This document shows, piece by piece, positions 1 to 25,782 of a stretch of 64,000 nt of DNA. The translations under genes were made by a program, and so were the position numbers. Where the stretch lies: contig JABIDS010000009.1 of the NCBI GenBank assembly GCA_018651605.1, forward strand, positions 19,966 through 83,965, in the 5' to 3' direction. Each line of letters opens with the position of its first letter. Position 1 is the first letter of the stretch. A model generated the notes under the pieces. It did not search any database. It saw nothing but the letters and a program-made list of their open reading frames with translations, and was not told where the DNA came from. The stretch is from an archaeon (GTDB lineage Archaea; Nanobdellota; Nanobdellia; Pacearchaeales; GW2011-AR1).

Positions 1-99
1 ATTTAAGAATTTATATGAAAATCCTTTGCCTGTTTGGGATAAAGGTCCTGTTTGGGCTTGATGTGAGTTATTTTTGTAGGGGTAATTTGTTTGTTATTA

Positions 100-142
100 T
101 ATACAATATGTTTTTATATGTGTTTTTTCTAATATTGTAAAG
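100..142 (+). promoter_or_regulatory. putative archaeal promoter (TATA-like tttttatat ~30 bp upstream of the giant ORF start)
   Basis: AT-rich TTTATA-like box at ~104-112, about 30 nt upstream of ATG at 143. No SD, consistent with leaderless/short-leader archaeal transcripts. Confidence 0.3.
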
Positions 143-3100
143 ATGGTGTTGGAAAAAAAAGATGTGATTGGACATATAGAATTGACTTATATTTTGTTTG
201 TTCTTTTGTTTGTTTTGGTAGGGTTTTTGTTTAGTTTTGATTATGTTGTTGAGGAGTTTGTTAAGGAAGGTGTTGAGAGTGAGGGGGTTGGGGTTTTGGA
301 GGGTGGAGTGGAGGTTGGTGTTGGTTCTGAGGGTAGTGGTTTAGGGAGAGATGGTTTTGATGGTGATGAAAAGAAGAGTGGTTTTTTTAAGAGGATTTTT
401 GAGGGGTTGTTTGGTAAGGAGGAGGTTTTGTTTAGTCCTCCATCTATTGACTCTGTTTCTCCATTGAATGGATTATCAAAAACTGGTGAGGAACAAATAT
501 TTACTATAGAATATTCTGATCCTGAGGGATGGGAAGATTTAATCTATGGTTATGTTATTTTTGGAGCAGATTCATCTGATAGTAGGATTTTTTTAGAGTA
601 TAGGCATACTACAAAATTCGGATTAGTTAATGATAAAGGGATTATGACTTATCATTGTGATCCAGAATCAGATAATTTTTTATCTAATTCTTATGTAAAA
701 TTAGATTGTTCTAAATCTTTTGTTTCTGGTTCTGGAGATACTATGACTTTAACTTTAGCTTTAACATTTAAAGAGCCTTTTATTGGAAATTGGAAAATAC
801 TTTTAAGGACAAAAGATATTTCAGATAAAGATAAGGGTAAATGGGTGCCAATGGGGGATTGGGATGTTGAGGAAGGGGAGGTAATTATTGTTCCTGTTAA
901 ACCTCTTCCTCAAATGCGGGCACTTTATGGAGGGATTAATGAATTAAGAATTGGAGAGGGTGGGATAGATGCATACACTGATATGTTTAGGAGTTATGGA
1001 ATTAATACATTTATAACTAAACATTCTGGATTAAGAAATAATTTTATTTATGCTGATAGGTATCCAAATTCTCCTGAAAATTTTTATGAATCAATTTTAG
1101 ACCAGGCTGAGTGGGCTGAACAAAAAGGATTTGTTTTCTTTCCAATTATTGATTTTGTTCATAGGGTTAATGATCCTGATGATTTGGATGGGGATGAGAT
1201 TACAGTTTCTTCCATTACAGATAACTATGTTGTTTTTAGTGATGGTAGTGCGGGTTCACAAGTAACTCCTTTTGATGAGACTTATTGGGATTATTTAACT
1301 GATATTGCAGTGAGATTAGCAAGACTTTCAGAAAATTATGGCAAATATCGGGTTGATGGTTTAATGTTTGATTTTGAATTGTATAAAAGTGTAGAATTTG
1401 GAGAACCAAGAAAATTTGATAGGACTTTTGGTTTTGAAGATTCTACTTTTAATAATTATTTGGTTGATAGAGGTTTAGTTGAGTTGAATAGTCCTCCTAA
1501 GGAGTCTAATCAGAGGGCTGAAAGATATGATTGGTTAATAGATAATGGGAGATGGACTGATTATTATTCTTATCTTGAAGATACAATAGAAAAACTTGCA
1601 GAAAATATGAAGAGTGAGGTAAGAAAGGTTAATCCTGATTTCGTGTTAGGATTTTATCCTACGCCAGAGCCGCTTTATTTAATAGATATCCTTGATGGTT
1701 TTGGAAGTGAGGATGATCCTGCGGTTTTATTGGATACTTTTACTTATGCAATATCTTATATGGGATATTCTTATGGGGGAGAAGTAGTTCCAACAGGGAT
1801 TAGTCGTAATAGATTGCCTTCTGGTTATTTTGATGTAACTAAAAGATATCATCCTGAAAGAAATAAACCTGCGTATGCTTATTATCTTGGAGGAACAATA
1901 GCTGCTGCTTATGATCCTTTGGATTATGAAAATAAATTATATAATATTGGAAATGATGGAAATGGTTATTGGATTTATCAGGCTACTTTTTTTCTAAATG
2001 GTTTTAGGCCGGATTTACCGGGATGGGGATTACCTTGTAATAATGGGATTCGTTCTTTTAATTGTCCGAATGCTGATGCACATCAAGGTGCTGTTGACCA
2101 TTATTTGAATGAGATAAAAAATGCTAATTTAAGGTTGGGATGGGAGCCGTGTGTTCTTTCAAATGGAGGTGATGAAATATGTGATAATAAAGATAATGAT
2201 TGTAATGGAAAGGTTGATGATGGTGATTTGTGTGATAATGGAAATTATTGTGATGGTGTTGAAACTTGTTCTTCAGGAAGTTGTGTTGATGGTAGTGCTG
2301 TTGTATGTAATGATGGAATTGATTGTACTGATGATTTTTGTGATGAAGTAAATGATAAATGTGATGTAGATGAGTCTTCTTCTAGTTGTGGATGCCCTAA
2401 TGGTTTGGATTCAGAGTGTAGTAATGATGATGTTTGTGATGGTATTGAGAGTTGTAATACTGAAACTTTGGTTTGTATTGATGATGTGGATTTGGATTGT
2501 GATGGGAGTGATGTTTGTATTGATTATTCTTGTGACGCTGTTTTAGGTTGTCAAGAGAGTTTTAATAGTGCTGATTGTAATGATGGGGTTGATTGTACTT
2601 TGGGAGATAAATGTAATTTGGGTGATTGTTCTGGAACTCCTTATGATAGTGAGTGTGAATTTTTTTGGCAGTCTTGTAATCCTGTTTCTGGTTGTGAGCA
2701 GGCGAGTTGTAAGGATTGTAAGGATTGTGATACCTGGCTTGGTAGTTGTAGTTATAATGAATGTCATAATGAATGTGATTGGGGAGATGGTTGTTATTTT
2801 GAGAAGGATCCTTTGGGTGATGATTGTGTTCCATTAAGTGAAGGTTGTTCTTCTGTTGGTAGTTGTGGAGATTATTCTGTTGAGGAGTGTGTTAGTGATT
2901 TATGTGATAAGGCTCCTGTTGGTGGGAATGGTTGTGAGTTAGGTGAAAATAGGTTTGTAATTATGTCTTTTAGTCAGTATTTAGATGATTTTGCTGATGA
3001 ATGGCATCAATTAGTTCAACAGACATATATTCAAAATGAAAAAGTTATTAATAAGATATATATTGACGGTGTGTTAAGAAATACTGAAAAGTTTGAGGAT

Positions 3101-6100
3101 GCAGGAGGGTTGGTTAATAATTATGCTAATCTTAAGTTAGCTGTTGATTTGAATGGAGAAGTTGATGATGTTAAAATTTGGAATAGGGCTTTGAGTTCTA
3201 GTGAAGTTTTAGATGATAATAATGGTGTTTTGGTTTCTGATTCATTGATTGCACATTATAATTTTAATGAGGGTAGTGGGGTTGGAGTTGTGGATTCTGT
3301 AGGAGATAATGATGGTGTTCTTAATGGGGATGCAGTGAGAATTGATGGAGGAATTATTGATATTGGAACTTCAGGTTATATTGAAATTAAAGAAACTTCG
3401 GTGATGGATATTTCATTAACAGATGAGTATACTATTTCTGGTAGGTTTAAGTTATCTTCAGAAGAAACTGCAGGCAGTAGATATTTTTGGTCTGATTATT
3501 CTTGGATGAACTCAGGATTTATTGCTATAATTTTTCCTCGTGATCAGAAATTTTATTATTATAATACACATAAAGATTTGAGTGTTTGTGTTGATGCTAG
3601 TTATTGTGGGGATGGTGTTTGTGGTTTTGAGTCTGGAGAGAATTGTGGTGGTTGTGAGGAGGATTGTGGTTGTTCTGGTGAGACTCCTCATTGTTCTAGT
3701 GGGAATTGTGTTGAATGTGAGAGGCCTAGTGATTGTGATGATGGATTATATTGTAATGGTGTTGAAAGTTGTGTTGATGGAAGTTGTGTTGATGGAAGTG
3801 TTATTAATTTTGATGATAGAGTTGGTTGTACTATGGATAGTTGTGATGAAGTTAATGATGTGATTGTTAATGTTGTTGATGATGGTTTATGTCAGAATGG
3901 AGATTGGTGTGATGGTGTTGAGAGTTGTGACGCTGTTTTGGATTGTCAAGATGAGGTTGATCCTGATTGTAGTGATGTTTATAGTTGTAGTGTTGATAGT
4001 TGTAGTGAGGGGTCGGTAGTTGGGGATAATTTAGGTGTTTGTGATTATGATACTTCTGGTTGTGGATGTTTAGTTGATGGTGATTGTGATGATTCAAATG
4101 ATTGTACTGATGATTTTTGTAATGCTCAACGTGAATGTGATAAGACGAATAAGATTAATGGTTTTGTCTGTGATGATGGGAATTTATGTACTGAGGATGA
4201 TAAATGTTCTGTTGGGGTTTGTAGTGGTTCTGCTAGGGATTGTTCTTCTTTAAGTGATCAGTGTAATGATGGTGTTTGTGATTTAGATGATGGTTTGTGT
4301 AAGGCAGAGGTTAAGATTAATGGTTTGAGTTGTGATGATGGTTTGTTTTGTAGTGTTAGTGATGTTTGTGGGAATGGTGTTTGTGGTGGTTCTTCTAGAG
4401 ATTGTTCATCCTTTAATGATCAGTGTAATGATGGTGTTTGTGATGATGTTTTGAATTTGTGTAAGGCTGATGCTAAGGTTAATGGTTTGGATTGTGATGA
4501 TGAGGTTGATTGTACTGTTGAAGATAAATGTAGTTTTGGGGATTGTAAGGGTCGTGTTGATGATAATGAATGTGAAGATTGGGAATCTTGTAATCCTGTT
4601 TCTGATTGTGGGCAAGTAACTTGTTCAAGTTGTAAGGAATGTGATAGTTGGCTTAGTGGTTGTGATTATAATGAATGTCATAATGAATGTGATTGGGGGG
4701 ATGGATGTTATTTTGATTCTAAGTTTGGTGAGAATTGTGTTTCATTAGTTGATGGTTGTTCTTCTGTGGATAGTTGTGAGGATTATTCTAGTGAGGAATG
4801 TGTTAGTGATTTGTGTGGTAAGGCACCTTCTTCAAATGGGTGTGAACTTGATGGAGATGATTGTGTTGCTGTTAGTTATTGTGGGGATGGTGTTTGTGAT
4901 GTTGGTTCTGAAGATTGTAGTAGTTGTGTTGAAGATTGTAGTTGTTCTGGGAATGTTGATTTGAAGCAGTGTTCTAGTGGAAGTTGTGTTGAATGTTTGG
5001 AGGTTGATGATTGTGATGATGATAAGAGTTGTACTAATGATTTGTGTACAAATAATGTTTGTGTTTTTCCTGAGATTGATTCAGATGGAGATGGTTATGG
5101 TGCTTGTTTAGGTATAGGGTTTGATTGTGATGATGGGGACCGGGATGTTAATCCTGGGGTTGAAGAGAGTTGTAATAATGTTGATGATGATTGTGATGGT
5201 TTGACTGATGAGAGTTTGAGTCAGGCTACTAGTTGTGGTGTTGGTTTGTGTTTAGGTAATGTTGGTGTTGAAACTTGTTCTTTAGGTAGTTGGATTGGTG
5301 ATACATGTGATGAAGATGATGGTGCTGTTGATGAAGTTTGTAATAATGCCGACGATGATTGTGATGGTTCTACTGATGAGGGTTGTGCTTGTTCATTAGG
5401 TGATACTCAACCTTGTGGTAGTGATGTTGGAGAATGTGTTGCTGGTTCTCAAGTTTGTGATATTAATGGTATTTGGGGGGATTGTGTTGGTGGGCAAGGA
5501 CCTGTTGTTGAAATTTGTGATAATAAGGATAATGATTGTTCTAATGGGATTGATGATGGCTTGAGTAGGGGAACAAGTTGTGGGGTTGGGGCGTGTTCTG
5601 GGAATAGTGGGGTTGAAACTTGTTCTGCGGGTGTTTGGGGAAGTGATACATGTGATGATAAAGCTGGTGCTGTGAGTGATGCGAATTGTAATGGTGTTGA
5701 TGATGATTGTGATGGTTCTAAGGATGAAGATTATGTTTCGGTTGATACAAGTTGTGGGGTTGGGGAGTGTTTGGGGAATAGTGGTAGTTGGAGTTGTGTG
5801 AGTGGGAATGAGGTTGATAGTTGTGATGAATATGCTGGGAAGGTTGAAGAGAGTTGTGATGATGAAACTGGTTTTGATGGTTTGGATAATAATTGTGACG
5901 GTAATGTTGATTTAGATTGCGAATCTATTTGTGATAAAGATGGAGATGGTTATACAAATAATTTAATTTGTTTACCTGCTTGTTTAATTTATGGTTGGAA
6001 TTGTTTGAGTTTGGATTGTGATGATTCTAATGTAAATATAAATCCTAGAGAGGATGAATTATGTAATGGTATTGATGATGATTGTGATGGTGGAACAAGT

Positions 6101-7975
6101 GATGGAGTTGATGAGGATTGGTTTGGAGATGAGACAGGGTGTGGGGTTGGGGAGTGTGCTGCGGTTGGGGAACAATTATGTATAAATTCTCAAAAAACAA
6201 ATACATGTCAAGAAGGTGTTGCAGAGTTAGATGATAAGAGTTGTGATGGGAAGGATAATGATTGTAGTGGTGATGCTGATGAAGATTATATTTCTTTAGT
6301 TACTGATTGTGGTATTAATGAATGTTTGAGAATCGGGATAACATCATGTTCTAATGGAGAGGTTTTGGATTCTTGTGTTGTTGGAACTTCTGAACTAGAG
6401 ATTTGTGATGGTAAGGATAATGATTGTGATGGGAAATTTGATGAGGGTTGTGATTGTTTATTAGGTGATAGTCAACCTTGTGGGAGTGATGTTGGTGAAT
6501 GTGTTGTAGGTTTGCAGACTTGTAATATTAATGGTAATTGGGGAGATTGTGTTGGTGGTCAGGGTCCTGTAGAGGAGATTTGTGATGGTTTGGATAATAA
6601 TTGTGTTGGAGGGGTTGATGAAGGTGGAAATAGTTTATGTGATGATTCTATTGATTGTACTGATGATGTATGTAATGGTGTGAGTGAATGTTCTTATACT
6701 GAGAATCATGGTCTTTGTGAGAATAATTTATTTTGTGATGGAGAGGAAAGATGTAGTATTGATGAAGAGAAATGTATTTCTATAAAGACTCCTAATTGTG
6801 AGGATGTTTTTTCATGTACTGATGATTCTTGTGATGAGGGTTTGGATAAGTGTGTTAGTGATGAAAATTCTGGGAATTGTTTGACTGGGCAGATTTGCGA
6901 TGTTCTTAATTTTGTTGCTCCAACTGGTTGCGGTTATGTTGAGAATTGTGTTGATAAAGATGGTGATGGGTTGTATGATTATGATGAGAATTTTTGTTCG
7001 GAGGGTGTTGATGAGTGTTCTGGAACAAATAAGGGTTATTTTGTTAGGAATCCTTTTAAGTTGAATGATTATTTGCCTAAGGTTGGAAAGTTTAATATTC
7101 CTTCGGTGAATGCAGGAAATATTTTGAATTTTGAGAATTTTAGTGTTGAGTATAATGGGACTAAAATTAATTTTGTTGATAATGTTAGTTTGGTTAAAGT
7201 GAATGCTAGCGGTTGTTTTGAGGTTATTAATTTAAGTGAGATTGTTTTGTTTGAGGATGGTAAGTTGAGTGTGAATACGAGTTTGATGGATGGATTTGAT
7301 AAGCCTGCACTGTTGAAGTTTAGTGGAATTAATTTTGAGAACCCTCAGATTTATAGGGATGATGTTAAGTGTGTTGATTGCGAGATTATTAATTATTCTA
7401 AGGGAGAATTTTTAGAGGTCATGATTACTGGTTTTGTTTCTTATGATGTTAAGGAAGGGGCTTATTGTGGGGATGGTGTTTGTAATGGTGGTGATAGTTG
7501 TTCTAATTGCGTTGTTGATTGTGGGGTTTGTTCTGCAGGTGAGGGAGGTATTCTTGGAGGAGGTTCTGGGAGTTCTGGTGGTGGTGGTGGTGGGAGTCCT
7601 AGTGGTCCTAGTGGTCCAAGTGGAGGAAATCCTAGTGGTTTAAATATAAATCAAAGTAGTGTTGTAAATGTTTCTTATCCTAGTAGTTGTGTTGAAACTT
7701 GGTCTTGTAAGGATTGGAGTGAATGTAATGAGAGTGTTCAGAGAAGGGAGTGTTCGGATGTTAATGATTGTGGGAGTGAGGAGTATAAGCCTATTTTGGA
7801 GAAGGAATGTGTTGAGAAGAATAATGTTATAAAACTTGCTGTTGCATTTTTTATATCTTTTTTTGTTTCAGGAATAGTTGCTGTTTTGATTGTTGTTTAT
7901 TTTAAGATTAGGGATAGAAGGAAGAGTGTTATTAGAGATTTGCATAAGAATGGTTATCATGGGTTTAAGTGGTGA
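143..7975 (+). CDS. giant cysteine-rich cell-surface protein (2610 aa) with MopE-like CDxxDNDCDG metal-binding-type repeats, LamG/ConA-like blocks and C-terminal TM anchor
   Basis: Uninterrupted 7.8 kb ORF. N-terminal hydrophobic segment LTYILFVLLFVLVGFLFSF. Hundreds of Cys in repeated CxxxC and CDNKDNDCDG..DE units. Two blocks with a LamG-like signature (IYIDGVL...VDDVKIWNRALSSSEV). Gly/Ser/Pro linker GGGSGSSGGGGGGSPSGPSGPSGG. C-terminal TM LAVAFFISFFVSGIVAVLIVVYF followed by basic KIRDRRK. Confidence 0.85.
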   Translation: MVLEKKDVIGHIELTYILFVLLFVLVGFLFSFDYVVEEFVKEGVESEGVGVLEGGVEVGVGSEGSGLGRDGFDGDEKKSGFFKRIFEGLFGKEEVLFSPPSIDSVSPLNGLSKTGEEQIFTIEYSDPEGWEDLIYGYVIFGADSSDSRIFLEYRHTTKFGLVNDKGIMTYHCDPESDNFLSNSYVKLDCSKSFVSGSGDTMTLTLALTFKEPFIGNWKILLRTKDISDKDKGKWVPMGDWDVEEGEVIIVPVKPLPQMRALYGGINELRIGEGGIDAYTDMFRSYGINTFITKHSGLRNNFIYADRYPNSPENFYESILDQAEWAEQKGFVFFPIIDFVHRVNDPDDLDGDEITVSSITDNYVVFSDGSAGSQVTPFDETYWDYLTDIAVRLARLSENYGKYRVDGLMFDFELYKSVEFGEPRKFDRTFGFEDSTFNNYLVDRGLVELNSPPKESNQRAERYDWLIDNGRWTDYYSYLEDTIEKLAENMKSEVRKVNPDFVLGFYPTPEPLYLIDILDGFGSEDDPAVLLDTFTYAISYMGYSYGGEVVPTGISRNRLPSGYFDVTKRYHPERNKPAYAYYLGGTIAAAYDPLDYENKLYNIGNDGNGYWIYQATFFLNGFRPDLPGWGLPCNNGIRSFNCPNADAHQGAVDHYLNEIKNANLRLGWEPCVLSNGGDEICDNKDNDCNGKVDDGDLCDNGNYCDGVETCSSGSCVDGSAVVCNDGIDCTDDFCDEVNDKCDVDESSSSCGCPNGLDSECSNDDVCDGIESCNTETLVCIDDVDLDCDGSDVCIDYSCDAVLGCQESFNSADCNDGVDCTLGDKCNLGDCSGTPYDSECEFFWQSCNPVSGCEQASCKDCKDCDTWLGSCSYNECHNECDWGDGCYFEKDPLGDDCVPLSEGCSSVGSCGDYSVEECVSDLCDKAPVGGNGCELGENRFVIMSFSQYLDDFADEWHQLVQQTYIQNEKVINKIYIDGVLRNTEKFEDAGGLVNNYANLKLAVDLNGEVDDVKIWNRALSSSEVLDDNNGVLVSDSLIAHYNFNEGSGVGVVDSVGDNDGVLNGDAVRIDGGIIDIGTSGYIEIKETSVMDISLTDEYTISGRFKLSSEETAGSRYFWSDYSWMNSGFIAIIFPRDQKFYYYNTHKDLSVCVDASYCGDGVCGFESGENCGGCEEDCGCSGETPHCSSGNCVECERPSDCDDGLYCNGVESCVDGSCVDGSVINFDDRVGCTMDSCDEVNDVIVNVVDDGLCQNGDWCDGVESCDAVLDCQDEVDPDCSDVYSCSVDSCSEGSVVGDNLGVCDYDTSGCGCLVDGDCDDSNDCTDDFCNAQRECDKTNKINGFVCDDGNLCTEDDKCSVGVCSGSARDCSSLSDQCNDGVCDLDDGLCKAEVKINGLSCDDGLFCSVSDVCGNGVCGGSSRDCSSFNDQCNDGVCDDVLNLCKADAKVNGLDCDDEVDCTVEDKCSFGDCKGRVDDNECEDWESCNPVSDCGQVTCSSCKECDSWLSGCDYNECHNECDWGDGCYFDSKFGENCVSLVDGCSSVDSCEDYSSEECVSDLCGKAPSSNGCELDGDDCVAVSYCGDGVCDVGSEDCSSCVEDCSCSGNVDLKQCSSGSCVECLEVDDCDDDKSCTNDLCTNNVCVFPEIDSDGDGYGACLGIGFDCDDGDRDVNPGVEESCNNVDDDCDGLTDESLSQATSCGVGLCLGNVGVETCSLGSWIGDTCDEDDGAVDEVCNNADDDCDGSTDEGCACSLGDTQPCGSDVGECVAGSQVCDINGIWGDCVGGQGPVVEICDNKDNDCSNGIDDGLSRGTSCGVGACSGNSGVETCSAGVWGSDTCDDKAGAVSDANCNGVDDDCDGSKDEDYVSVDTSCGVGECLGNSGSWSCVSGNEVDSCDEYAGKVEESCDDETGFDGLDNNCDGNVDLDCESICDKDGDGYTNNLICLPACLIYGWNCLSLDCDDSNVNINPREDELCNGIDDDCDGGTSDGVDEDWFGDETGCGVGECAAVGEQLCINSQKTNTCQEGVAELDDKSCDGKDNDCSGDADEDYISLVTDCGINECLRIGITSCSNGEVLDSCVVGTSELEICDGKDNDCDGKFDEGCDCLLGDSQPCGSDVGECVVGLQTCNINGNWGDCVGGQGPVEEICDGLDNNCVGGVDEGGNSLCDDSIDCTDDVCNGVSECSYTENHGLCENNLFCDGEERCSIDEEKCISIKTPNCEDVFSCTDDSCDEGLDKCVSDENSGNCLTGQICDVLNFVAPTGCGYVENCVDKDGDGLYDYDENFCSEGVDECSGTNKGYFVRNPFKLNDYLPKVGKFNIPSVNAGNILNFENFSVEYNGTKINFVDNVSLVKVNASGCFEVINLSEIVLFEDGKLSVNTSLMDGFDKPALLKFSGINFENPQIYRDDVKCVDCEIINYSKGEFLEVMITGFVSYDVKEGAYCGDGVCNGGDSCSNCVVDCGVCSAGEGGILGGGSGSSGGGGGGSPSGPSGPSGGNPSGLNINQSSVVNVSYPSSCVETWSCKDWSECNESVQRRECSDVNDCGSEEYKPILEKECVEKNNVIKLAVAFFISFFVSGIVAVLIVVYFKIRDRRKSVIRDLHKNGYHGFKW

Positions 7976-7989
7976 TTTGGTTGGGTTGG

Positions 7990-8370
7990 ATTTTCCACCA
8001 CCCACGGAAAGCCGGTTTCACCTTTCCCTTTCCGTGCCGTTGCAGTCTTAAAAAGTTGTTAGAGGGTTTATTTATTCAGAGGAGTTTTCTTTGGTTGTTG
8101 TTAAGAGATTGGTTTGGTTATAGATGGGAAAGGTGTTTTGTAGAGAGTTTAAGATTTAGGAGATTCAGAGAATTAAAAATTCTCTGACTTAGAAAAATAA
8201 GCTATAAGCCCTATTATTTTTCTAATTTCAGTATTTAGCGGAGCGCCCTGACTAAGTCGGGTGCGAGAGCGATATAAAATAAGTTATGAGCTGAAGGAGA
8301 ATGAATCATGGATGGAATAAATGAACCGAAAGAGAATGAATCTATGCGAGCGATAGTGAATGAATCTAAT
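7990..8370 (+). repeat. interspersed repeat family A, copy 1 (structured intergenic element, ~380 bp, contains 9-bp-arm palindrome and an inverted GAC-loop hairpin)
   Basis: Shares blocks (cGGAAAgccg; caCTTTCCCTTTCC; ttgttagaGGGTTTATTTATTCAGAGgag; ATAAGCCC; aaaTAAGTTATGAGC; GAATGAATCTAtGCGAGCG) with copies at 11735-11885 and 56345-56630. Palindrome cagagaatt/aattctctg at 8166-8188. Segment gcggagcgccctgactaagtcgggtgcgagagcg resembles the reverse complement of the hairpins at 45560 and 46799. Confidence 0.7.
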
Positions 8371-8377
8371 CTTTTAA

Positions 8378-10426
8378 TCACTCAATCCTACTAATCCCGT
8401 TATCTTTTTGTATTCTTATTATGTTATCTACAAAACCTTCAATTTTTTGTTCATGAGATACTAGGATGAGTTGTTCTGTGTTTAGTTGATGAAGGACATC
8501 TCGCATTTTATCTAATTGTTGGTCTGAGAATCCATCTGTTGGTTCGTCTAGGATGACTAGGTTTGATGTTTTAATGTTGCTTAATAGGGAATTGATGACT
8601 TGGTTTAAAGAGAGACGGTATGCAAGGGCTATTGCTGTTCTTTCTCCTCCGCTTAAGAATGAATAATCTAATTCGTAATCTTGTTGAGTGATTACTGGTG
8701 AAAAGTCGTCATCTAGCGAGGCTGTTAAGGAATCCGAGACAAGTGTTGAGAACCAATCTGAGAATAATGTTGAGAATTCTTGTTTTAAACTTAACATTAC
8801 TTGTTTTTCTGTGAAAAGGATGAGGTCTAGGAATTTGTTTGAAATCCAAGATTCAATGTGTTTGATTTTTTCTGCCTTGGTTTTTATTTCTTGTTTCTTT
8901 TGTATTTTTTCCTTGACTTCATTAATCTGTATTCCTAATAGTTGAATTTCTTTATTTGTTTCTGCTTTTTTTATTGCTAATTTTTCTTGATTTGTTTTTG
9001 TTTGATTTAGTTCTTCTTTTTTTGTTTTGTAAATTGTTTCATATTTGTCGTATTCTTTTATTGATTTTTCTATTGTTTCTATGTGTTTTTTTAATGTCTC
9101 TGTATCTTCATTTGTTGCTTGCATTTGTTTTTCTAAGTCTTGTATTCTTTGTTGTTTTTCTTTGATTGTTTCTAATTTTACTTTTCTAATTTCTAAGTCT
9201 GATTTTCTTTTTTTGTATTCTTCTATTGAATTTTTTATTGATTCTAATTGTTTTTCTAAATATGTTCTTTGTTTTGTTAATTGATTTATTGATTCTTGTA
9301 ATTGTTTTATTTCTTGGCTTGTTTTTTGAGATATATTTTGTTTGTAATTTTCTGAAACTTCTTGAAGGCAGGTTGGACAATTTTCTAAGTGAGATATTTT
9401 GTTTTGTAGGCTTTCTGTTTCTTGTTTTTTTGAATCTTGTGAATTTATTTTACTAACTATTTGTATGAATTCTTTTTCTAATTCTTGATGTTTGGATTCT
9501 TGGAATTTTACTCTTTGGTCTAATGCTGTGTATTCTCCTTCGTCGAATTTTAATTCTTGAGTTTCTTTTAATTGATATTGAATATTGCTAATGTTATTTT
9601 TTGTTGAAGTTATTTGTTGAGATTTTTCTCTTATTAAAAGTTCTGATTTTGATTTTTCGTTTTCTAATGTTTGTTTTTGGTTTATTTTTTCTTGAACTTC
9701 TTCAAGTGCTTTTTCTTTTTCTTTTGATTTTTCTAATGCTTGTTCGTGTTGCTGTGTTAATTGTGTTTTTAATTTTTTTAAGTCTTCTAAGTTTTGTTTT
9801 TTGTTTTCTAGGTTTTGTTTTTCTTCATCAATGTCTTGAGTAATTAATTCAAAAAGTCTTGCTTTTTCTCTTAATTTTGAAGTTAATATTGATAAATTTT
9901 CTTCTATTCTCTTATATTTGTCGATTCCAAAAACATGTCTTAATGTGTTTAGTCTTATGTCTCCTGGTTCTAGGATTATTTGTTTCATTTCTTCCTGGGG
10001 AGTGTAGACTGTGAATTTGTATAGAAGGTTTGTTTTTTTTGCGAATTCTGGAGGGTAGTTTAGTAATTTTAGAATTTTTGATTTTATTTCTGTTACAGAG
10101 CCTTCGAATTTTTCTTGGTTTATTGTTATTGATGAATAATCTTGTGTTACTGATTTTTTTGTTTTTTTAAGGGACCTTTCTATTATTATCTCTTTATTGT
10201 CTATTTCTAAATGTAGTTCTACTTTTGCTTGTTCTTGATTGGTTTTGAGAAGTGATGTTCCTTTTTGTGAGGGCTGTAGGCCGAAGAGTGCGAATTCTAT
10301 TGCAAGGAGTATTGTTGTTTTTCCTGCTCCTATGTCTCCTGATAAAAGTGTTGAACCTTGTGGGAATGTTATTGTTTGGTCTTCGTAGCTTCTTATGTTT
10401 TGGATTTGGAGGGATTTTAGTTGCAT
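8378..10426 (-). CDS. rad50: DNA double-strand break repair ATPase Rad50 (compact, 682 aa)
   Basis: Walker A GDIGAGKTTILLAIEFALFG. Long coiled coil with zinc hook CPTC. ABC signature SGGERTAIALAYRLSL. Walker B LVILDEPTDGFSD. Start overlaps the mre11 stop. Confidence 0.9.
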   Translation of the reverse strand: MQLKSLQIQNIRSYEDQTITFPQGSTLLSGDIGAGKTTILLAIEFALFGLQPSQKGTSLLKTNQEQAKVELHLEIDNKEIIIERSLKKTKKSVTQDYSSITINQEKFEGSVTEIKSKILKLLNYPPEFAKKTNLLYKFTVYTPQEEMKQIILEPGDIRLNTLRHVFGIDKYKRIEENLSILTSKLREKARLFELITQDIDEEKQNLENKKQNLEDLKKLKTQLTQQHEQALEKSKEKEKALEEVQEKINQKQTLENEKSKSELLIREKSQQITSTKNNISNIQYQLKETQELKFDEGEYTALDQRVKFQESKHQELEKEFIQIVSKINSQDSKKQETESLQNKISHLENCPTCLQEVSENYKQNISQKTSQEIKQLQESINQLTKQRTYLEKQLESIKNSIEEYKKRKSDLEIRKVKLETIKEKQQRIQDLEKQMQATNEDTETLKKHIETIEKSIKEYDKYETIYKTKKEELNQTKTNQEKLAIKKAETNKEIQLLGIQINEVKEKIQKKQEIKTKAEKIKHIESWISNKFLDLILFTEKQVMLSLKQEFSTLFSDWFSTLVSDSLTASLDDDFSPVITQQDYELDYSFLSGGERTAIALAYRLSLNQVINSLLSNIKTSNLVILDEPTDGFSDQQLDKMRDVLHQLNTEQLILVSHEQKIEGFVDNIIRIQKDNGISRIE

Positions 10427-11631
10427 TATATTTCCTCACTAAAATTTATATCCAATACCTTACCTAATCCTAAAAGCAATCTTGATTCAAAAGTTGCTGA
10501 TTTTTCGTCTTCTTGTTTTTCTAGGGTGAGGGCTTCCATGAGGGGGGAGATAAGTTTGTTGTTGTTTGAGGGGTTTTCTTTTTCATAGGTTTTAATTAAG
10601 GTTTCTTCTATTTTTTCTTTGTTGTGGTTTGGGTCGCTGAATTCTATTTGTAGGTCTTGTCTTTCTACTTCAAGTTTTGAGGTGTTTTTTAGAAATGAAT
10701 ATGCATTTTGTTTTTCTATGAAGTCTTGTATTTCTTGAAATTTTATGTCTGTGTATTTTCCTTGTTTTAATATTCCGAAAAGTTTTAAGAGGATTATTTT
10801 ATCTTTGAGTTCTCTTTTTTCTAGTTCTTTGATTATTTTTTCTGTTGCTTTAATTGCATTGTCAATTTCTATTTTGATTAGTTCTACTGGTTTTATTTTT
10901 ATTTCTTTTTTTGTTACTTTTGTGTAACCTGCGACTTCTATTATGTAAAATGCTCCTTGTTTTAGTTCTTCTAGTTCTTTGAAGTTGTTTGGGAATGTTG
11001 GTCCTCCGTAAACTGCAGGTTTGTTGTTTACTTCTTGGTTGAAGTCTATGTGGATGTGTCCTAAAGCGTAGTAGTCTGCTTGAGGGAGTTGGTCTAAGGG
11101 AATTGAGTCAATTGGTAGATTTTGTGCAGCTTCTTTGACTGTTGTGTGGAGCATCAGTATTCTGAAGTTTTCTGAATATGGCTGATTTATTTTTATTTTT
11201 CTTAATGATTCTACTTCGAGTCCTGATTTTTTTCCAGGGTATCCATAGATGTAACATTCCTTGTCTCTTATTGGTTCTAGTGTTATTTCTTGAGTTTCTT
11301 GGTTTTCTTGATATTTGCAGATTTGACAGAATCCTGCTTTTTCTAGGACGTCTAGGAATGTTTTTCCTGAGACAGAATAATCATGTGAGCCTGCGATGAT
11401 GTAGGATTTTATGTTTGCGTCTTTTAGTTTTTTGAATTCGCTGAAAGCGAATTTTAGGGTTTCTATTGATGGGAATGCTGAATCAAATAAGTCTCCTGCG
11501 AATAATATGAAATCTACTTGTTCTTCTATTGATGTATTAATTGCATAGGTGAATGATTGTCTGTTTAGTTCTTGTAGTTCTGGTTGGCGCCATCCTCCTA
11601 AGTGTGAGTCTGCTATGTGTGAGAATTTCAT
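10426..11631 (-). CDS. mre11: DNA repair nuclease Mre11 (calcineurin-like phosphoesterase)
   Basis: Motifs MKFSHIADSHLG, GDLFD and AGSHDY are typical of Mre11/SbcD. Operonic with rad50. Confidence 0.9.
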   Translation of the reverse strand: MKFSHIADSHLGGWRQPELQELNRQSFTYAINTSIEEQVDFILFAGDLFDSAFPSIETLKFAFSEFKKLKDANIKSYIIAGSHDYSVSGKTFLDVLEKAGFCQICKYQENQETQEITLEPIRDKECYIYGYPGKKSGLEVESLRKIKINQPYSENFRILMLHTTVKEAAQNLPIDSIPLDQLPQADYYALGHIHIDFNQEVNNKPAVYGGPTFPNNFKELEELKQGAFYIIEVAGYTKVTKKEIKIKPVELIKIEIDNAIKATEKIIKELEKRELKDKIILLKLFGILKQGKYTDIKFQEIQDFIEKQNAYSFLKNTSKLEVERQDLQIEFSDPNHNKEKIEETLIKTYEKENPSNNNKLISPLMEALTLEKQEDEKSATFESRLLLGLGKVLDINFSEEI

Positions 11632-11734
11632 TTTAAGGTATTTAATCGCTTTGCGATTAAGGTGTTATTTACTTTAATCATTTGGATTAAAGTTATTTTA
11701 AATTTTTAAGGATTGTTGTTGTGTGGTTTGTTTT

Positions 11735-11885
11735 GGGATCAATTCCCCTGGCGGAAAGCCGTGCTTCGCACTTTCCCTTTCCTCCCTTTTGTCTTGGTAA
11801 ATTGTTAAAGGGTTATTTTATTCAGAGAATCTATAGATTCTCTGACTCGTAAAAACGAGCCATAAGCCCCATCGTTTTTCCGATG
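11735..11885 (+). repeat. interspersed repeat family A, copy 2 (short version, with perfect 10-bp-arm palindrome)
   Basis: Blocks gcGGAAAGCCG, CACTTTCCCTTTCC, ttggtaaattgttaaaGGGTTATTTTATTCAGAG, palindrome cagagaatct/agattctctg (11823-11844), then gactcgtaaaaacgagccATAAGCCCC. Same order as in copy 1. Confidence 0.7.
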
Positions 11886-12069
11886 AAGATGAGTTTTCCT
11901 TGGTTTTTAAGGATTAATAGGTATTAGAAGGTTTATTTCATATCGATTTACCCTTTGAAAGGTGATTTAGTATATAAGTGTTGCGTTACTATTTTATAAT
12001 TAGTATATATTTGTGTTTGTGGAAGATTTGATATGTTTGGATAATCTTTTTATAATAGGTTTTCTTTAG

Positions 12070-21471: not shown

Positions 21472-21656
21472 TTGTAGTATTTGGTGGGGGTATCACTTCG
21501 CCAATAACTTTAACAACTCTTTATCTTGAAGCATTACTATGGCTATTGCTAGTTTTCTTTGTTCATCTTTTTGTTTTTCGATTTTTGAATCGTTTCTTGC
21601 TCTGGTTTTTAATACTTTTTGGTATTTTATTTTTTTCATTTTATTTTTTGTTGTTT

Positions 21657-22205
21657 TTATTTATTTAATATTATATCAATAATGTAATCTTTAAGATTTT
21701 TTGAGTTTTTATTAATATATTTTTTTATCCATGTTTTTGCGCTTTTGAATGATATTTTGCTATTGTGGGATACTAGTTCTCTGATAAATATATCTGTAGG
21801 GTTTATCTTGGGGATTTCTAATTTATATCCTTTTGTTAGTAAGTGCGCCTTTGCTGTAATAAATGCGGCTCTTTTATTTCCATCTATAAAAAAATGTCCT
21901 TTTTTTGCAATTTCGTTAATGATAATTATTGTTATCCCTGATATGTCATTTGGAAAGTTTGATTCATAACTAATTATGTTATATGAGGCATTGTAGATTC
22001 CTCCTTCATCTCTTATTCCTTTATCTTCTTTTATCTCCATTGCGCCCTCATGACTTTGTTTTATTAATCTAATCATACTTTCTATTTCCTGTTTTGAAGG
22101 CTTTTTTCTTTCTTTATTCCAATAAGGGCTATTACAATTAGGACAAAATCTAGGACTTTCTTTTCTTGTTTTCCATTCATGATTGCATCTTAGACATTTA
22201 CTCAT
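21657..22205 (-). CDS. Fic/Doc-family protein (Doc-type toxin) fused to N-terminal zinc ribbon
   Basis: N-terminal CLRCNHEW…CPNCNSPYW. Doc-type motif GHFFIDGNKRAAF (HxFxDGNKR). No Phd-like partner ORF upstream. Confidence 0.65.
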   Translation of the reverse strand: MSKCLRCNHEWKTRKESPRFCPNCNSPYWNKERKKPSKQEIESMIRLIKQSHEGAMEIKEDKGIRDEGGIYNASYNIISYESNFPNDISGITIIIINEIAKKGHFFIDGNKRAAFITAKAHLLTKGYKLEIPKINPTDIFIRELVSHNSKISFKSAKTWIKKYINKNSKNLKDYIIDIILNK

Positions 22206-22359
22206 TTTATTCTATATAGTTTAATTAAGCTATATAGGTATATCTAACTATATAAATGTATTGATTGTTGATCTAGGGGTTATTAGTTTTATATTAACTA
22301 CTCTATTACAATAAAAATTTTCCTACTAAATTTAAATAATATTAATTCTTGTATATTGT

Positions 22360-22800
22360 ATGGGAATTTTGGGTAGGATTCGGGAATTGGAAAAAGGTTT
22401 GGGTGCAATTGTTGTTGTTCAGGAAGTGGAGTATCATAAGGAAAAAGTAGGTGTGTTGAATTTTGAAGATGAATGGTGTTCGGATTTTAGGAGAGTTGTT
22501 GATAAGCCAAGGATTACTCTGCCGGATGTTTTGAGAAGAAAAGTGGCAAAAGATGAATTAAGGAAAATCTATAATGATTCTAAATGTTATCAACTTATTA
22601 GAAAGTATTTGTGTGAAAAGGTTGTGTGGCGAGTTGGGTTAAGGGATGTGGAAAGGAGGAGAGAAGAGTTAGATATGAAGAAGCAGGCAGATGAATATTC
22701 TGGGTTGTTGGAAGAGGAAAGAAGGTTGAAGAAGATTCCTAAAAAGATAGTTGTTAATCTTGAGGGTAGGTCTTATGAATTTAATGATTTTGATTTTTAG
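22360..22800 (+). CDS. hypothetical protein
   Basis: 146-aa charged ORF with native-like composition. Confidence 0.4.
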   Translation: MGILGRIRELEKGLGAIVVVQEVEYHKEKVGVLNFEDEWCSDFRRVVDKPRITLPDVLRRKVAKDELRKIYNDSKCYQLIRKYLCEKVVWRVGLRDVERRREELDMKKQADEYSGLLEEERRLKKIPKKIVVNLEGRSYEFNDFDF

Positions 22801-22847: not shown

Positions 22848-23027
22848 TTATCTTTTCTTAGAAGTTTTCTTAGCTTTCTTTTTCTTGACAGGTTTTTTCT
22901 TTGATTCAGTTATAGCTGATTCAAGTTTTTCCTGTTGTTCTGCTAATCTTAGAATTTGATCTTTTATCTCTAAAATATCTTTTCTAACTTCGCTGAATGA
23001 TTTTTTTAGGTTTGTTTCGATACTCAT
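22848..23027 (-). CDS. possible small basic coiled-coil protein (~59 aa; below ORF-track cutoff)
   Basis: Manual translation MSIETNLKKSFSEVRKDILEIKDQILRLAEQQEKLESAITESKKKPVKKKKAKKTSKKR. Coordinates approximate. Confidence 0.2.
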   Translation of the reverse strand: MSIETNLKKSFSEVRKDILEIKDQILRLAEQQEKLESAITESKKKPVKKKKAKKTSKKR

Positions 23028-23773: not shown

Positions 23774-23829
23774 AGATTAATTTATTTGAAACCAAAGATT
23801 AAAAAAGGCTTTTTTTCTTATTAATTTAT

Positions 23830-23904
23830 GGCTTGTTAGCTCAGTCTGGTTAGAGCACTAGACTCTTAATCTAGGTGTCGGGAGTTCAAATCTCCCACAG
23901 GCCA
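23830..23904 (+). tRNA. tRNA-Lys (anticodon CTT), 75 nt, no encoded CCA
   Basis: Manual cloverleaf: acceptor GGCTTGT/ACAGGCC; D arm GCTC-AGTCTGGTTA-GAGC; anticodon arm CTAGA-CTCTTAA-TCTAG; T arm GGGAG-TTCAAAT-CTCCC; discriminator A. Confidence 0.85.
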
Positions 23905-23975
23905 TTTATATCTTAACACTAAATCTAAGATGTAGAAAATTATGAAGGATTAAATACATTTAGATATTTTGTAGC

Positions 23976-24719
23976 CTACTTGATCTTCTCACCTGACTCC
24001 CAAAGCATATAAAAATATTTTTTTAAACTATCAGCTAAAGAATCATTTTTAATCCATAGTGATAAATATTTATCTCCTTCAACAATCCTTATAGTAACAT
24101 CACTATCATCAATAATAGTAAATTTTGTAGTAATAAGAGGAATTTTTCTAATTTCAGCATTAATTTTCTTCCAGACTTTTAATTTATCGCTAGTTGCCTC
24201 CTCATCACTTGTTAAAATCTTAATCTTGACATTATCTTTAGCATTTTTTTCATAAGAATCGATATGAGGTTTATATGTTGAAAGTTCAGAAATTGTCAAC
24301 CATTCCCTTCTAACATTCTTATGAAGACTCACAGAAAGATTAAGATAATTCTTATAACCTTCAACAATTTTTATTTTATCAATCACTTCATCCTTGTTAA
24401 TCATAGCAAGTTCCCCTAATTCATTCATAATCCTGTCAGAATTATTAATAAAATTATCTAGTTCTTTTTCTTTTTTTTCTTTTAAGTAATTAAAGATTAT
24501 CTTAGGTGCAACTGAAACGAACTTTTTCGGACTACCGTCATACTTTTTTACAAATCCTTTGGCAGTTAAAGACTCTAATACTGAATATATCTTACTATTT
24601 GGAATTAAAGATTCCTTTGATATCTTATATGCAGTTGATATCCCATTTTTTATTAAATATATGTATGCCTTTGATTCATTAGTTGTCAAACCAAATTGCT
24701 TTAATTTCTCCATAATCAT
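23976..24719 (-). CDS. TrmB-family transcriptional regulator
   Basis: N-terminal wHTH LKQFGLTTNESKAYIYLIKNGISTAYKISKESLIPNSKIYSVLESLTAKGFV matches the TrmB signature. 247 aa. Confidence 0.7.
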   Translation of the reverse strand: MIMEKLKQFGLTTNESKAYIYLIKNGISTAYKISKESLIPNSKIYSVLESLTAKGFVKKYDGSPKKFVSVAPKIIFNYLKEKKEKELDNFINNSDRIMNELGELAMINKDEVIDKIKIVEGYKNYLNLSVSLHKNVRREWLTISELSTYKPHIDSYEKNAKDNVKIKILTSDEEATSDKLKVWKKINAEIRKIPLITTKFTIIDDSDVTIRIVEGDKYLSLWIKNDSLADSLKKYFYMLWESGEKIK

Positions 24720-24772: not shown

Positions 24773-25462
24773 ATGTCAAAAAAACTTATAAACCAACATG
24801 AAGAATTAAAAGAACAAAATATACGTAAACCACTTTATCCTTGGGCTCCAGAAATATATAATAATATGATGAACCCAATTTCACTTGAACCAATTAAAGA
24901 AAGAGCATGGAATCACTTTCTTTGGAACCTTGGTTTAACAATTACCTGGCCTATTACTGCACCCGGTTCATTTATTTGGGCCATGCAAAGAAATCTAAGA
25001 GGTAAGGGGCATTTTTCTGATGGATATATTGTTCTAGGATGTTTAACAGCACCCTACATCTTAGCTACAGAATCTAAAAGTTTCTTAACCAAAAGAACTG
25101 TAGCATTAAAATTTTCAAATATTGATGAATTATTAGAAGAAGAAACTATTTTAACAAAACCTGATGGAATAAATCCGGGGATTCGTTTTAGTACAAGAGA
25201 TAGAGGTAAAGACAGCCCTTATAGATTTGGAGACTCTTCTTCGAATACTGATAGATATGGATTTCTAGATTTAATTTTCCCAGATAACTTAGCTTTAGAT
25301 GATTTTTCAGCAATGTATTATGCAACTGCTAATAGAGAAAATCCTGGAAATCTGTATTTAGATTGTGAATATTTTCTAAAAGTAAATCCAGATGATACAA
25401 GAAGACTTTATGAAGAATTTGAAAAAGTGAGAAAACCTGGAGCAAATGATTTAAGAAAATAA
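24773..25462 (+). CDS. hypothetical protein
   Basis: 229-aa ORF between the two tRNA-Lys copies. No recognisable motif. Confidence 0.45.
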   Translation: MSKKLINQHEELKEQNIRKPLYPWAPEIYNNMMNPISLEPIKERAWNHFLWNLGLTITWPITAPGSFIWAMQRNLRGKGHFSDGYIVLGCLTAPYILATESKSFLTKRTVALKFSNIDELLEEETILTKPDGINPGIRFSTRDRGKDSPYRFGDSSSNTDRYGFLDLIFPDNLALDDFSAMYYATANRENPGNLYLDCEYFLKVNPDDTRRLYEEFEKVRKPGANDLRK

Positions 25463-25603
25463 GTAAAGTTAGTACTATCAACTGTTTAAGATAATTTTTT
25501 CTAAAATAGACACTGTGTCATATATAATCCAAAACTCTTAATCCAACACATATATCAATAAGAAAATTAAAAAACCATAAATACCTCATAAATTCATACT
25601 CAT

Positions 25604-25678
25604 GGCTTGTTAGCTCAGTCTGGTTAGAGCACTAGACTCTTAATCTAGGTGTCGGGAGTTCAAATCTCCCACAGGCCA
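25604..25678 (+). tRNA. tRNA-Lys (anticodon CTT), second identical copy
   Basis: 75/75 identical to 23830-23904. Confidence 0.85.
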
Positions 25679-25782
25679 TTTATGGCAGAGATTTTCACTC
25701 CAAGGAGTTTCCATAAAGGATGACTCAAAGGTTATTTGAGCCGCAAATCTCATCAGGCCATTTAAATTAATGTTAATAATTA

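Follow-up and report, generated by a model that had tools for sequence, protein, structure and literature searches.

A zinc-ribbon Doc gene and its downstream partner

We describe here a small gene module from an archaeon of the Pacearchaeales (lineage GW2011-AR1; assembly GCA_018651605.1), located in a stretch of 64,000 nucleotides of contig JABIDS010000009.1 (positions 19,966 to 83,965, forward strand) that we refer to as the window and whose own numbering is used throughout. The module comprises a gene for a Doc-type Fic protein with an N-terminal zinc ribbon, a 48-codon gene immediately downstream of it, and a promoter containing short palindromes. The original prediction recognized the first of these and described it as a solitary toxin on a putative genomic island, in which the ribbon might replace the antitoxin Phd. 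We find that the gene is not solitary, and we favor, with somewhat more confidence than doubt, a reading in which the locus is a toxin-first, two-gene Doc toxin-antitoxin (TA) module of DPANN archaea, with the ribbon reading the operator and a helical partner neutralizing the toxin. The features of the module are as follows.

21492 to 22268, minus strand: conserved cassette of 777 bp, containing the operator/promoter, the Doc gene and the partner gene
22212 to 22255, minus strand: promoter/operator with three TATATAG sites (22255-22248, 22237-22230 and 22219-22212) at an exact 18-nucleotide period
21657 to 22205, minus strand: zinc-ribbon Doc gene; product of 182 amino acids with the ribbon, a basic linker, a six-helix Doc domain and an extra C-terminal helix
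22116 to 22196, minus strand: zinc ribbon, residues 4-30, of pattern C-x-R-C-x-H-x-W ... C-P-x-C-x-S-P-Y-W-N, with four cysteines (C4, C7, C21, C24)
21870 to 21896, minus strand: Doc active-site motif H104-F-F-I-D-G-N-K-R112, as read from the sequence
21493 to 21639, minus strand: partner gene of 48 amino acids, the candidate antitoxin, starting 17 nucleotides past the Doc stop codon; product MKKIKYQKVLKTRARNDSKIEKQKDEQRKLAIAIVMLQDKELLKLLAK

The toxin is a member of the Doc subfamily

The open reading frame (ORF) at 21657-22205 is a real gene, whose 182-residue product starts MSKCLRCNHEW...RFCPNCNSPYWN and includes the active-site stretch GHFFIDGNKRAAF. A database search with this protein returned 19 full-length relatives of 182-203 residues (86-100% query coverage), labeled 'death-on-curing family protein' and nothing more; PF02661 is carried by relatives at 34-41% identity to the window protein. 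In an alignment of 20 full-length homologues the residues H104, F106, D108, G109, N110, K111 and R112 are invariant, among them the histidine and asparagine by which the original prediction stood or fell, and so are the four ribbon cysteines together with R6, W11, P22, S26, P27, Y28, W29 and N30. The motif contains the kinase-type lysine, and it is this lysine, in place of the Fic glycine, that makes Doc an EF-Tu kinase and not an AMPylase (PMC7180214). When the family profile was compared with the sequences in the PDB only two matches were recovered, and both are Doc proteins (9vzc, E=3e-7, and P1 Doc 3k33, E=0.002); the HxFxDGNKR of the window protein aligns with the HIFNDANKR of P1 Doc.

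The AlphaFold (AF2) model of the window protein (mean predicted local distance difference test score, pLDDT, 82; predicted template-modeling score, pTM, 0.72) places helices at residues 38-56, 67-83, 88-101, 110-124, 134-144 and 153-161, with an extra helix at 171-181, and its fold is that of Doc, a helical bundle defined by the lack of the first Fic helix and the beta-hairpin. The ribbon and the basic linker that follows it (residues 1-40) have pLDDT values of 70-81. The five best matches of the model in a Foldseek search of the PDB are all P1 Doc, with template-modeling (TM) scores of 0.75-0.78 over the Doc length, root-mean-square deviations of 2.8-2.9 and a probability of 1.00; the top match is 3dd7_A (TM score 0.78 normalized to Doc). 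By motif, profile and fold the protein is thus a member of the Doc subfamily, and it is probably an active enzyme of the Doc type.

An additional amphipathic helix (..KDVENYLNKTALNLMLGD) follows the Doc core and is conserved within the clade, in ribbon-bearing and zinc-less forms alike, at approximately residues 165-195 of the 200-residue forms; in the window protein this C-terminal helix is shorter (KDYIIDIILNK) and is modeled with low confidence. The inhibitory motif of Fic proteins, [ST]xxxE[GN], is absent from the window Doc and from every partner protein, and is present in just 6 of 30 Doc relatives, where it lies in the C-terminal tail. Because this motif is not conserved we rejected intramolecular inhibition of the class II or III Fic type.

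A conserved partner gene follows doc

The 154 bp upstream of the Doc gene (22206-22359) contain no same-strand ORF, the next gene upstream (22360-22800) being divergent, and no Phd/YefM-type antitoxin, nor one of the AbrB or ribbon-helix-helix types, lies directly upstream of doc. The original prediction is borne out here, as it is in its assignment of the ORF, the Doc-type HxFxDGNKR motif, the CxxC...CxxC zinc ribbon, and an archaeal setting, all relatives being from DPANN archaea. Its description of the toxin as solitary does not survive examination of the other side of the gene. In the contigs of relatives a called gene of 45-62 codons occupies the position of the partner, often overlapping the Doc stop codon, and the products align. 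We ran hidden Markov models (HMMs) of Doc and of the partner over 172 loci and the window. This flagged 43 ORFs as full-length zinc-ribbon Docs, and in 38 of these cases the next gene downstream is a small one in the same orientation, most often overlapping doc by 8-20 nucleotides; three of the remaining five reach the end of their contig and two are not true family members. Four additional loci also have the partner, and a fifth is interrupted by runs of N. In total, a partner homologue of 33-71 residues is present in all 42 loci with readable downstream DNA, separated from doc by -53 to +18 nucleotides, an overlap of about 4-20 nucleotides being the usual arrangement. That the two genes form a conserved operon can be taken as practically certain.

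The partner is also clearly a protein-coding gene. Compared with the related locus L001 (92% DNA identity) it has seven synonymous and one non-synonymous codon differences, which fall 2/0/7 by codon position, indicating a coding gene under purifying selection; the Doc genes of the same pair have 23 synonymous and four non-synonymous differences, and both genes of the module are thus under purifying selection. Residues D39, L42, L46, A47 and K48 of the partner are invariant, forming a C-terminal D..L...LAK pattern, and the consensus ...ISKNDKKLLELVKVAKEIVxKEDExLFKELAKH runs to the C-terminus. A search of 5.8 billion proteins with the partner profile yielded 260 clusters, and the 120 that were listed are all of 45-67 residues, none of them has a Pfam domain, and each is either unnamed or called 'hypothetical'; searches of Pfam, NCBIfam, PADLOC and the PDB sequences gave no match to the partner. 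For the partner alone AF2 predicts a single uninterrupted helix (residues 2-47, pLDDT 89.7), the behavior typical of a peptide that folds on binding another protein or assembles into a coiled coil.

An alternative is that the module is self-contained, with the ribbon masking or regulating the Doc active site in cis and no separate antitoxin being needed. The strict conservation of the fusion and the failure to find an upstream antitoxin are in keeping with this, and the basic linker, given its lower model confidence, could permit the ribbon to dock on the Doc domain. However, the partner gene is always there, and those relatives of the toxin that have no zinc ribbon are informative in this regard. 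In four of the five zinc-less loci that we read there is a small ORF with the C-terminus ...ED..L.KELAK[HR], which lies downstream of the Doc gene and abuts or overlaps it in three (L168, L259 and L261) and is convergent in the fourth (L118); no partner was found in the fifth (L044). The partner is thus tied to the Doc domain, as would be expected of an antitoxin, with the ribbon an addition in one clade; the ribbon is not a substitute for the neutralizer, as neutralization would be independent of it. Moreover, the ribbon is promiscuous, occurring alone and on unrelated proteins, and [ST]xxxE[GN] is missing from the window protein and scarce among its relatives. We consider regulation by the ribbon in cis to be very unlikely. 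That the downstream partner is instead the neutralizer of Doc, and so a candidate antitoxin, strikes us as clearly more probable than not.

One other antitoxin candidate, the upstream gene at 22848-23027 (59 codons), was rejected, since its association with the module is confined to the closest contigs and it is unlinked in other genomes. A resemblance between the partner and Phd at a C-terminal KEL(V/A)x(R/H) is an anecdote only, since hhalign found nothing.

The promoter contains palindromic sites

The three TATATAG sites of the window promoter all lie within the cassette conserved with L001. The sequence CTATATAG is unique to this promoter within the 64 kb, and for the periodic TATATAG pattern there are three matches over both strands against 0.01 expected. 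The middle site probably doubles as the TATA box.

In the main subfamily of these loci the 120 nucleotides upstream of the Doc gene share a conserved organization, analogous to that of the window although not the same, in which a TATA box (GGTTTAAATAT) is followed by a palindrome of about 22 nucleotides, of the form ATAT-arm-N2-6-arm'-ATAT, that ends at the ATG. Scored against all windows of its own locus, this palindrome falls within the top 10% for 25 of 30 loci and within the top 2% for 11. A second copy of the locus-specific palindrome is present at -65 to -71 in about half of the loci, and a palindrome is matched better by its own upstream region than by those of other loci (Wilcoxon p=0.005). 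The arms vary from locus to locus (TTATCA/TTACTA, GGTAT, GGTTA, ACCTA, TAGGTA). In the two zinc-less loci of which the upstream regions were read (L259 and L261), and which keep the partner, there is no ATAT...ATAT palindrome beside the ATG.

Since the TATA box of the main subfamily ends about 22 nucleotides before the ATG, we infer that the transcript is leaderless and that the palindrome is not transcribed, so that these would be DNA sites and not RNA hairpins. Twin palindromes over the core promoter are the classic autoregulatory layout of type II TA operons, and the promoters described here match what is predicted for an autoregulatory palindromic operator.

Operator sequence co-varies with the ribbon

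The variation of the arms raises the question of which component of the module might recognize them. We sorted 22 loci by eye into four operator classes and ranked the columns of the Doc and partner alignments by their association with class. The columns immediately before the third cysteine and immediately after the fourth cysteine of the ribbon are first and second among approximately 250 (F20 and N25 in the window protein), and correspond to the half-sites as follows.

Y before Cys3 (Q in one locus), K after Cys4 (H in two loci): half-site of the TTATCA type
T or N before Cys3, N after Cys4: half-site GGTAT
S before Cys3, H or R after Cys4: half-site GGTTA or TGTTA
V before Cys3, K after Cys4: half-site ACCTA

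Mantel tests over 30 loci point in the same direction. Operator distance correlates with distance in the ribbon segment (r=0.37, p=2e-4), including when the Doc domain is controlled for (partial r=0.33, p=2e-4); with the ribbon controlled for, its correlation with the Doc domain is r=0.04 (p=0.32) and that with the partner is r=0.18 (p=0.07). The palindrome sequence thus tracks the ribbon residues and not the Doc domain, and tracks the partner only marginally. Near-identical partners are found with differing operators, L024 and L019 being an example. Five ribbon-based predictions of the operator were set before new loci were read, of which three held (GGTTA at L177, a perfect TAGGTA palindrome at L178, and GGTAT at L173), one held in part (L175) and one failed (L176).

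The ribbon itself matches no specific Pfam family. It is widespread: hundreds of bacterial, archaeal and viral contigs contain it (profile positions 7-45, E of about 1e-11 to 1e-15), and it occurs alone as proteins of 42-60 residues and as two to five tandem repeats. In a locus from the Planctomycetia (L039; 93-551 and 517-960) it is joined to an MNT nucleotidyltransferase, the gene for which overlaps one for a HEPN protein, in L077 (3968-4969) to an N6/N4 DNA methylase, and elsewhere to an XRE-type helix-turn-helix (HTH) domain, for which the Pfam matches are weak and sub-threshold. These three kinds of fusion, the MNT protein being of the antitoxin type, support a role for the ribbon in reading DNA. 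We judge the chances that the ribbon binds the operator to be about evenly balanced, and it may in this way replace the DNA-binding half of Phd. The idea in the original prediction that the ribbon replaces Phd can therefore be kept in part: it fails for neutralization, given that zinc-less Docs mostly keep the partner, and for DNA binding it may be correct, given the co-variation.

Further examples of the ribbon, in P0059, P0081 and P0100, share the pattern C.RC.H.W...CP.C.SPYWN.PR. The neighbors of stand-alone ribbon genes are mixed and include DUF488 and, as recognized by eye, apparent recombinases, methylases and HNH nucleases; many of the candidate ORFs in these neighborhoods are spurious.

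A related possibility is a TA module whose ribbon has some other role, such as protein contact or stability, and whose palindromes are recognized either by a coiled-coil dimer of the partner or by a regulator of the host. It is the antitoxin that binds DNA in canonical type II systems; the residual partial correlation between partner and operator, weak as it is, would be accounted for, and one ribbon-based prediction failed. The partner, however, is a single helix with no recognizable DNA-binding fold, and its near-identity in loci with different operators and its retention at L259 and L261, where the ATAT...ATAT palindrome near the ATG is missing, are not what a partner bound to these palindromes leads one to expect. 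We think this arrangement quite unlikely, and continue to prefer the ribbon as the operator reader.

The module behaves as a mobile cassette

The cassette has 92.4% DNA identity with contigs that carry a 98%-identical Doc, with which it is the sole continuous block of homology. The boundaries are close to those of the module itself, one base beyond the partner stop codon on one side and 63 nucleotides upstream of the Doc ATG on the other. The 98%-identical Doc is present on a 493-kb contig and on shorter contigs, whose downstream contexts are unrelated to that of the window; upstream, synteny between the window and the close relative returns after an insertion of 557 bp. The module sits at a synteny breakpoint relative to this relative's DNA.

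The genomes with the ribbon-Doc fusion all belong to DPANN archaea, lineages that are small and for the most part uncultured (Pacearchaeota, Woesearchaeota, Nanoarchaeota and Aenigmatarchaeota), and in an exhaustive search of 1.84 billion cluster representatives the fusion is found in only about six clusters, the next-best matches being Docs of about 150 residues without the ribbon. The neighbors of the module vary by genome and include genes for an S-layer protein, a proteasome subunit, tRNA synthetases and TFE; transposase genes adjoin it in two loci and there are two ParE toxin genes in one. This patchy, context-independent and cassette-like distribution fits a TA module.

These observations also bear on a further alternative, that the pair is a domesticated regulatory kinase in which Doc and a helical adaptor tune translation or some other host process, with the ribbon directing the enzyme to RNA, the ribosome or aEF1A and not to DNA. 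DPANN genomes are small and yet keep the pair, and purifying selection acts on both of its genes. Zinc ribbons are common in archaeal proteins of translation and transcription, with a TFS gene only 1 kb away in the window, and the co-variation of ribbon and operator could be an effect of linkage. A host regulator is nonetheless difficult to reconcile with so patchy and context-independent a distribution, and with the presence of a near-identical cassette in a different neighborhood; in addition, the twin palindromes on the core promoter are laid out as for type II TA autoregulation, and the ribbon is found fused to DNA-acting proteins (a methyltransferase and HTH) and to an MNT antitoxin. Domestication is in our view unlikely, if not so much so that it should be neglected, and the TA module is the reading that we pursue below.

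A proposed mechanism

We propose that the Doc kinase would phosphorylate aEF1A and so stop translation, by analogy with P1 Doc, and that the partner, co-transcribed with it, would neutralize the toxin by binding it much as the C-terminal helix of Phd does. Repression of the operon would come from the ribbon of the toxin, bound at the palindromes that cover and surround the TATA box and start site, with the partner helix possibly pairing two toxins so that they fit the palindrome. As the partner has no DNA-binding domain, operator recognition is assigned to the ribbon, and the two jobs of Phd would be split, operator reading going to the ribbon of the toxin and neutralization to a minimal helix. 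We infer the toxicity, the kinase target and the neutralization, and likewise that the ribbon binds DNA and with what stoichiometry the complex forms.

Several observations weigh against this proposal. The presumed neutralizer resembles neither Phd (hhalign against P1 Phd, probability 0.05%) nor any other antitoxin family to a detectable degree. The operator classes were assigned by eye, the prediction for L176 failed outright, and the ribbon codons adjoin the operator, so that co-inheritance or linkage alone could give rise to the co-variation. The start sites are assumed from TATA-box spacing, and the operator of the window's own subfamily, which numbers only three or four sequences, has a different layout, with three 8-bp palindromes. 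Finally, the window protein itself falls short of the curated thresholds of the relevant models. Its score for the Pfam Fic family is 16.1 bits (E=0.02; cut-off 24) and that for NCBIfam TIGR01550 (DOC_P1) is 29.4 bits (E=7e-7; cut-off 38.65), and the PF02661 match proposed as a check in the original prediction thus stays below its cut-off for this protein, while relatives at 34-41% identity carry the domain. We consider these sub-threshold scores to be compensated by the relatives with PF02661, the Doc-only matches in the PDB and the AF2 model.

Relationships to known systems

The closest comparison is with Phd-Doc of phage P1. Each has a toxin of the Doc fold whose HxFx(D/N)(A/G)NKR motif includes the kinase-type lysine, each is a small two-gene operon with palindromic promoter sites, and each is likely to have a partner helix that completes or blocks Doc. 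Phd acts in this way by fold complementation, one of its helices completing the Doc fold and inhibiting the toxin (PMC2686095). The module described here differs in having its toxin gene ahead of the partner gene, the opposite of the P1 order, and a partner of only about 48 residues that lacks the YefM/Phd DNA-binding domain; the toxin has an extra N-terminal ribbon and C-terminal helix; and the host is a DPANN archaeon, with aEF1A the presumed target.

Fusions of Fic to HTH domains were noted by Kinch et al. 2009, who likened them to the DNA-binding half of Phd (PMC2686095). These too are Fido-fold enzymes bearing their own nucleic-acid-binding domain, but the window module has a four-cysteine ribbon, a Doc-type enzyme with the lysine, and a separate small partner.

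A toxin gene that precedes the antitoxin gene is known from MqsR-MqsA, HigBA and HicAB. MqsA also provides a precedent for a zinc-binding module in a protein that regulates its operon, although there the zinc domain and an HTH are both on the antitoxin, whereas here it is the toxin that bears the ribbon, and the candidate antitoxin is no more than a helix. In the model searches the only trace of such a relation is a weak match to TIGR03830 (E=0.14). The HEPN-MNT pair of L039 resembles the window module in having an N-terminal ribbon of identical type on one component of an overlapping two-gene TA operon, and differs in that the ribbon is on the antitoxin-type MNT protein and not on the toxin.

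We found no description in the literature of a zinc-ribbon Doc or of a Doc antitoxin encoded downstream, and to our knowledge TA systems of DPANN archaea have hardly been studied. A type II system usually has its DNA-binding domain on the antitoxin. If our reading is correct, an operator reader borne by the toxin and a minimal helical antitoxin would alter the wiring of autoregulation and conditional cooperativity, and the ribbon would be a compact reader of about 35 residues whose specificity appears to follow one or two of them. Some 260 unannotated partner clusters (45-67 residues among the 120 listed) would gain a name, as would the ribbon domain. Should the reading fail, the locus is still re-annotated as a Doc module with a formerly missed partner gene. 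More tentatively, and with the odds against so broad a generalization, we suggest a DPANN-wide Doc TA family in which residues of the second knuckle would set a half-site code, a helix of about 48 residues would be the neutralizer and possibly the dimerizer through which palindromes can be bound, and the ribbon would be a widespread DNA-binding module of mobile elements and TA systems across bacteria, archaea and viruses.

Neighborhood of the module and other features of the window

The 557-bp insertion relative to L001 (22269-22824) lies directly upstream of the Doc promoter. It contains the divergent ORF at 22360-22800 (146 codons), which has no Pfam, NCBIfam or PADLOC match, and which we do not regard as part of the module given the lack of a family match and the absence of the insertion from the closest relative. 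Other neighbors in the window are genes for a methyltransferase, a TrmB-type regulator, TFS and a putative peptidase. Local G+C content is 0.28-0.29 compared with about 0.32 for the window; a clear compositional signal is not seen and the neighbors are ordinary chromosomal genes, and we have set aside the suggestion in the original prediction that the gene is on an island. A viral origin of the zinc-ribbon Doc was also rejected, since in IMG/VR viral contigs the ribbon is present alone and no zinc-ribbon Doc was found.

In one homologous locus (L004) there are two ParE-type toxin gene pairs at 5165-6255, no more than 1.7 kb downstream of the module, which together constitute a small TA cluster.

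The window contains two tRNA-Lys(CTT) genes (23829-23905 and 25603-25679) with equal Rfam scores and about 1.7 kb between them. Between the copies are the gene for the TrmB-type regulator (23976-24719, minus strand) and a 229-codon gene (24773-25462) of no named family. An apparently single tRNA-Lys region in L001 matches both copies, which suggests an insertion or duplication at the tRNA-Lys gene.

There is also a strong and persistent excess of G over C on the plus strand of the window, with skew values of 0.2-0.7 in nearly every 2-kb bin (for example in 1-8000 and 8001-12000); it persists where long ORFs are on the minus strand (8378-11631), and no more than two bins dip slightly below zero. 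The part of the window where this skew is greatest contains a giant plus-strand ORF of 2610 codons (143-7975).

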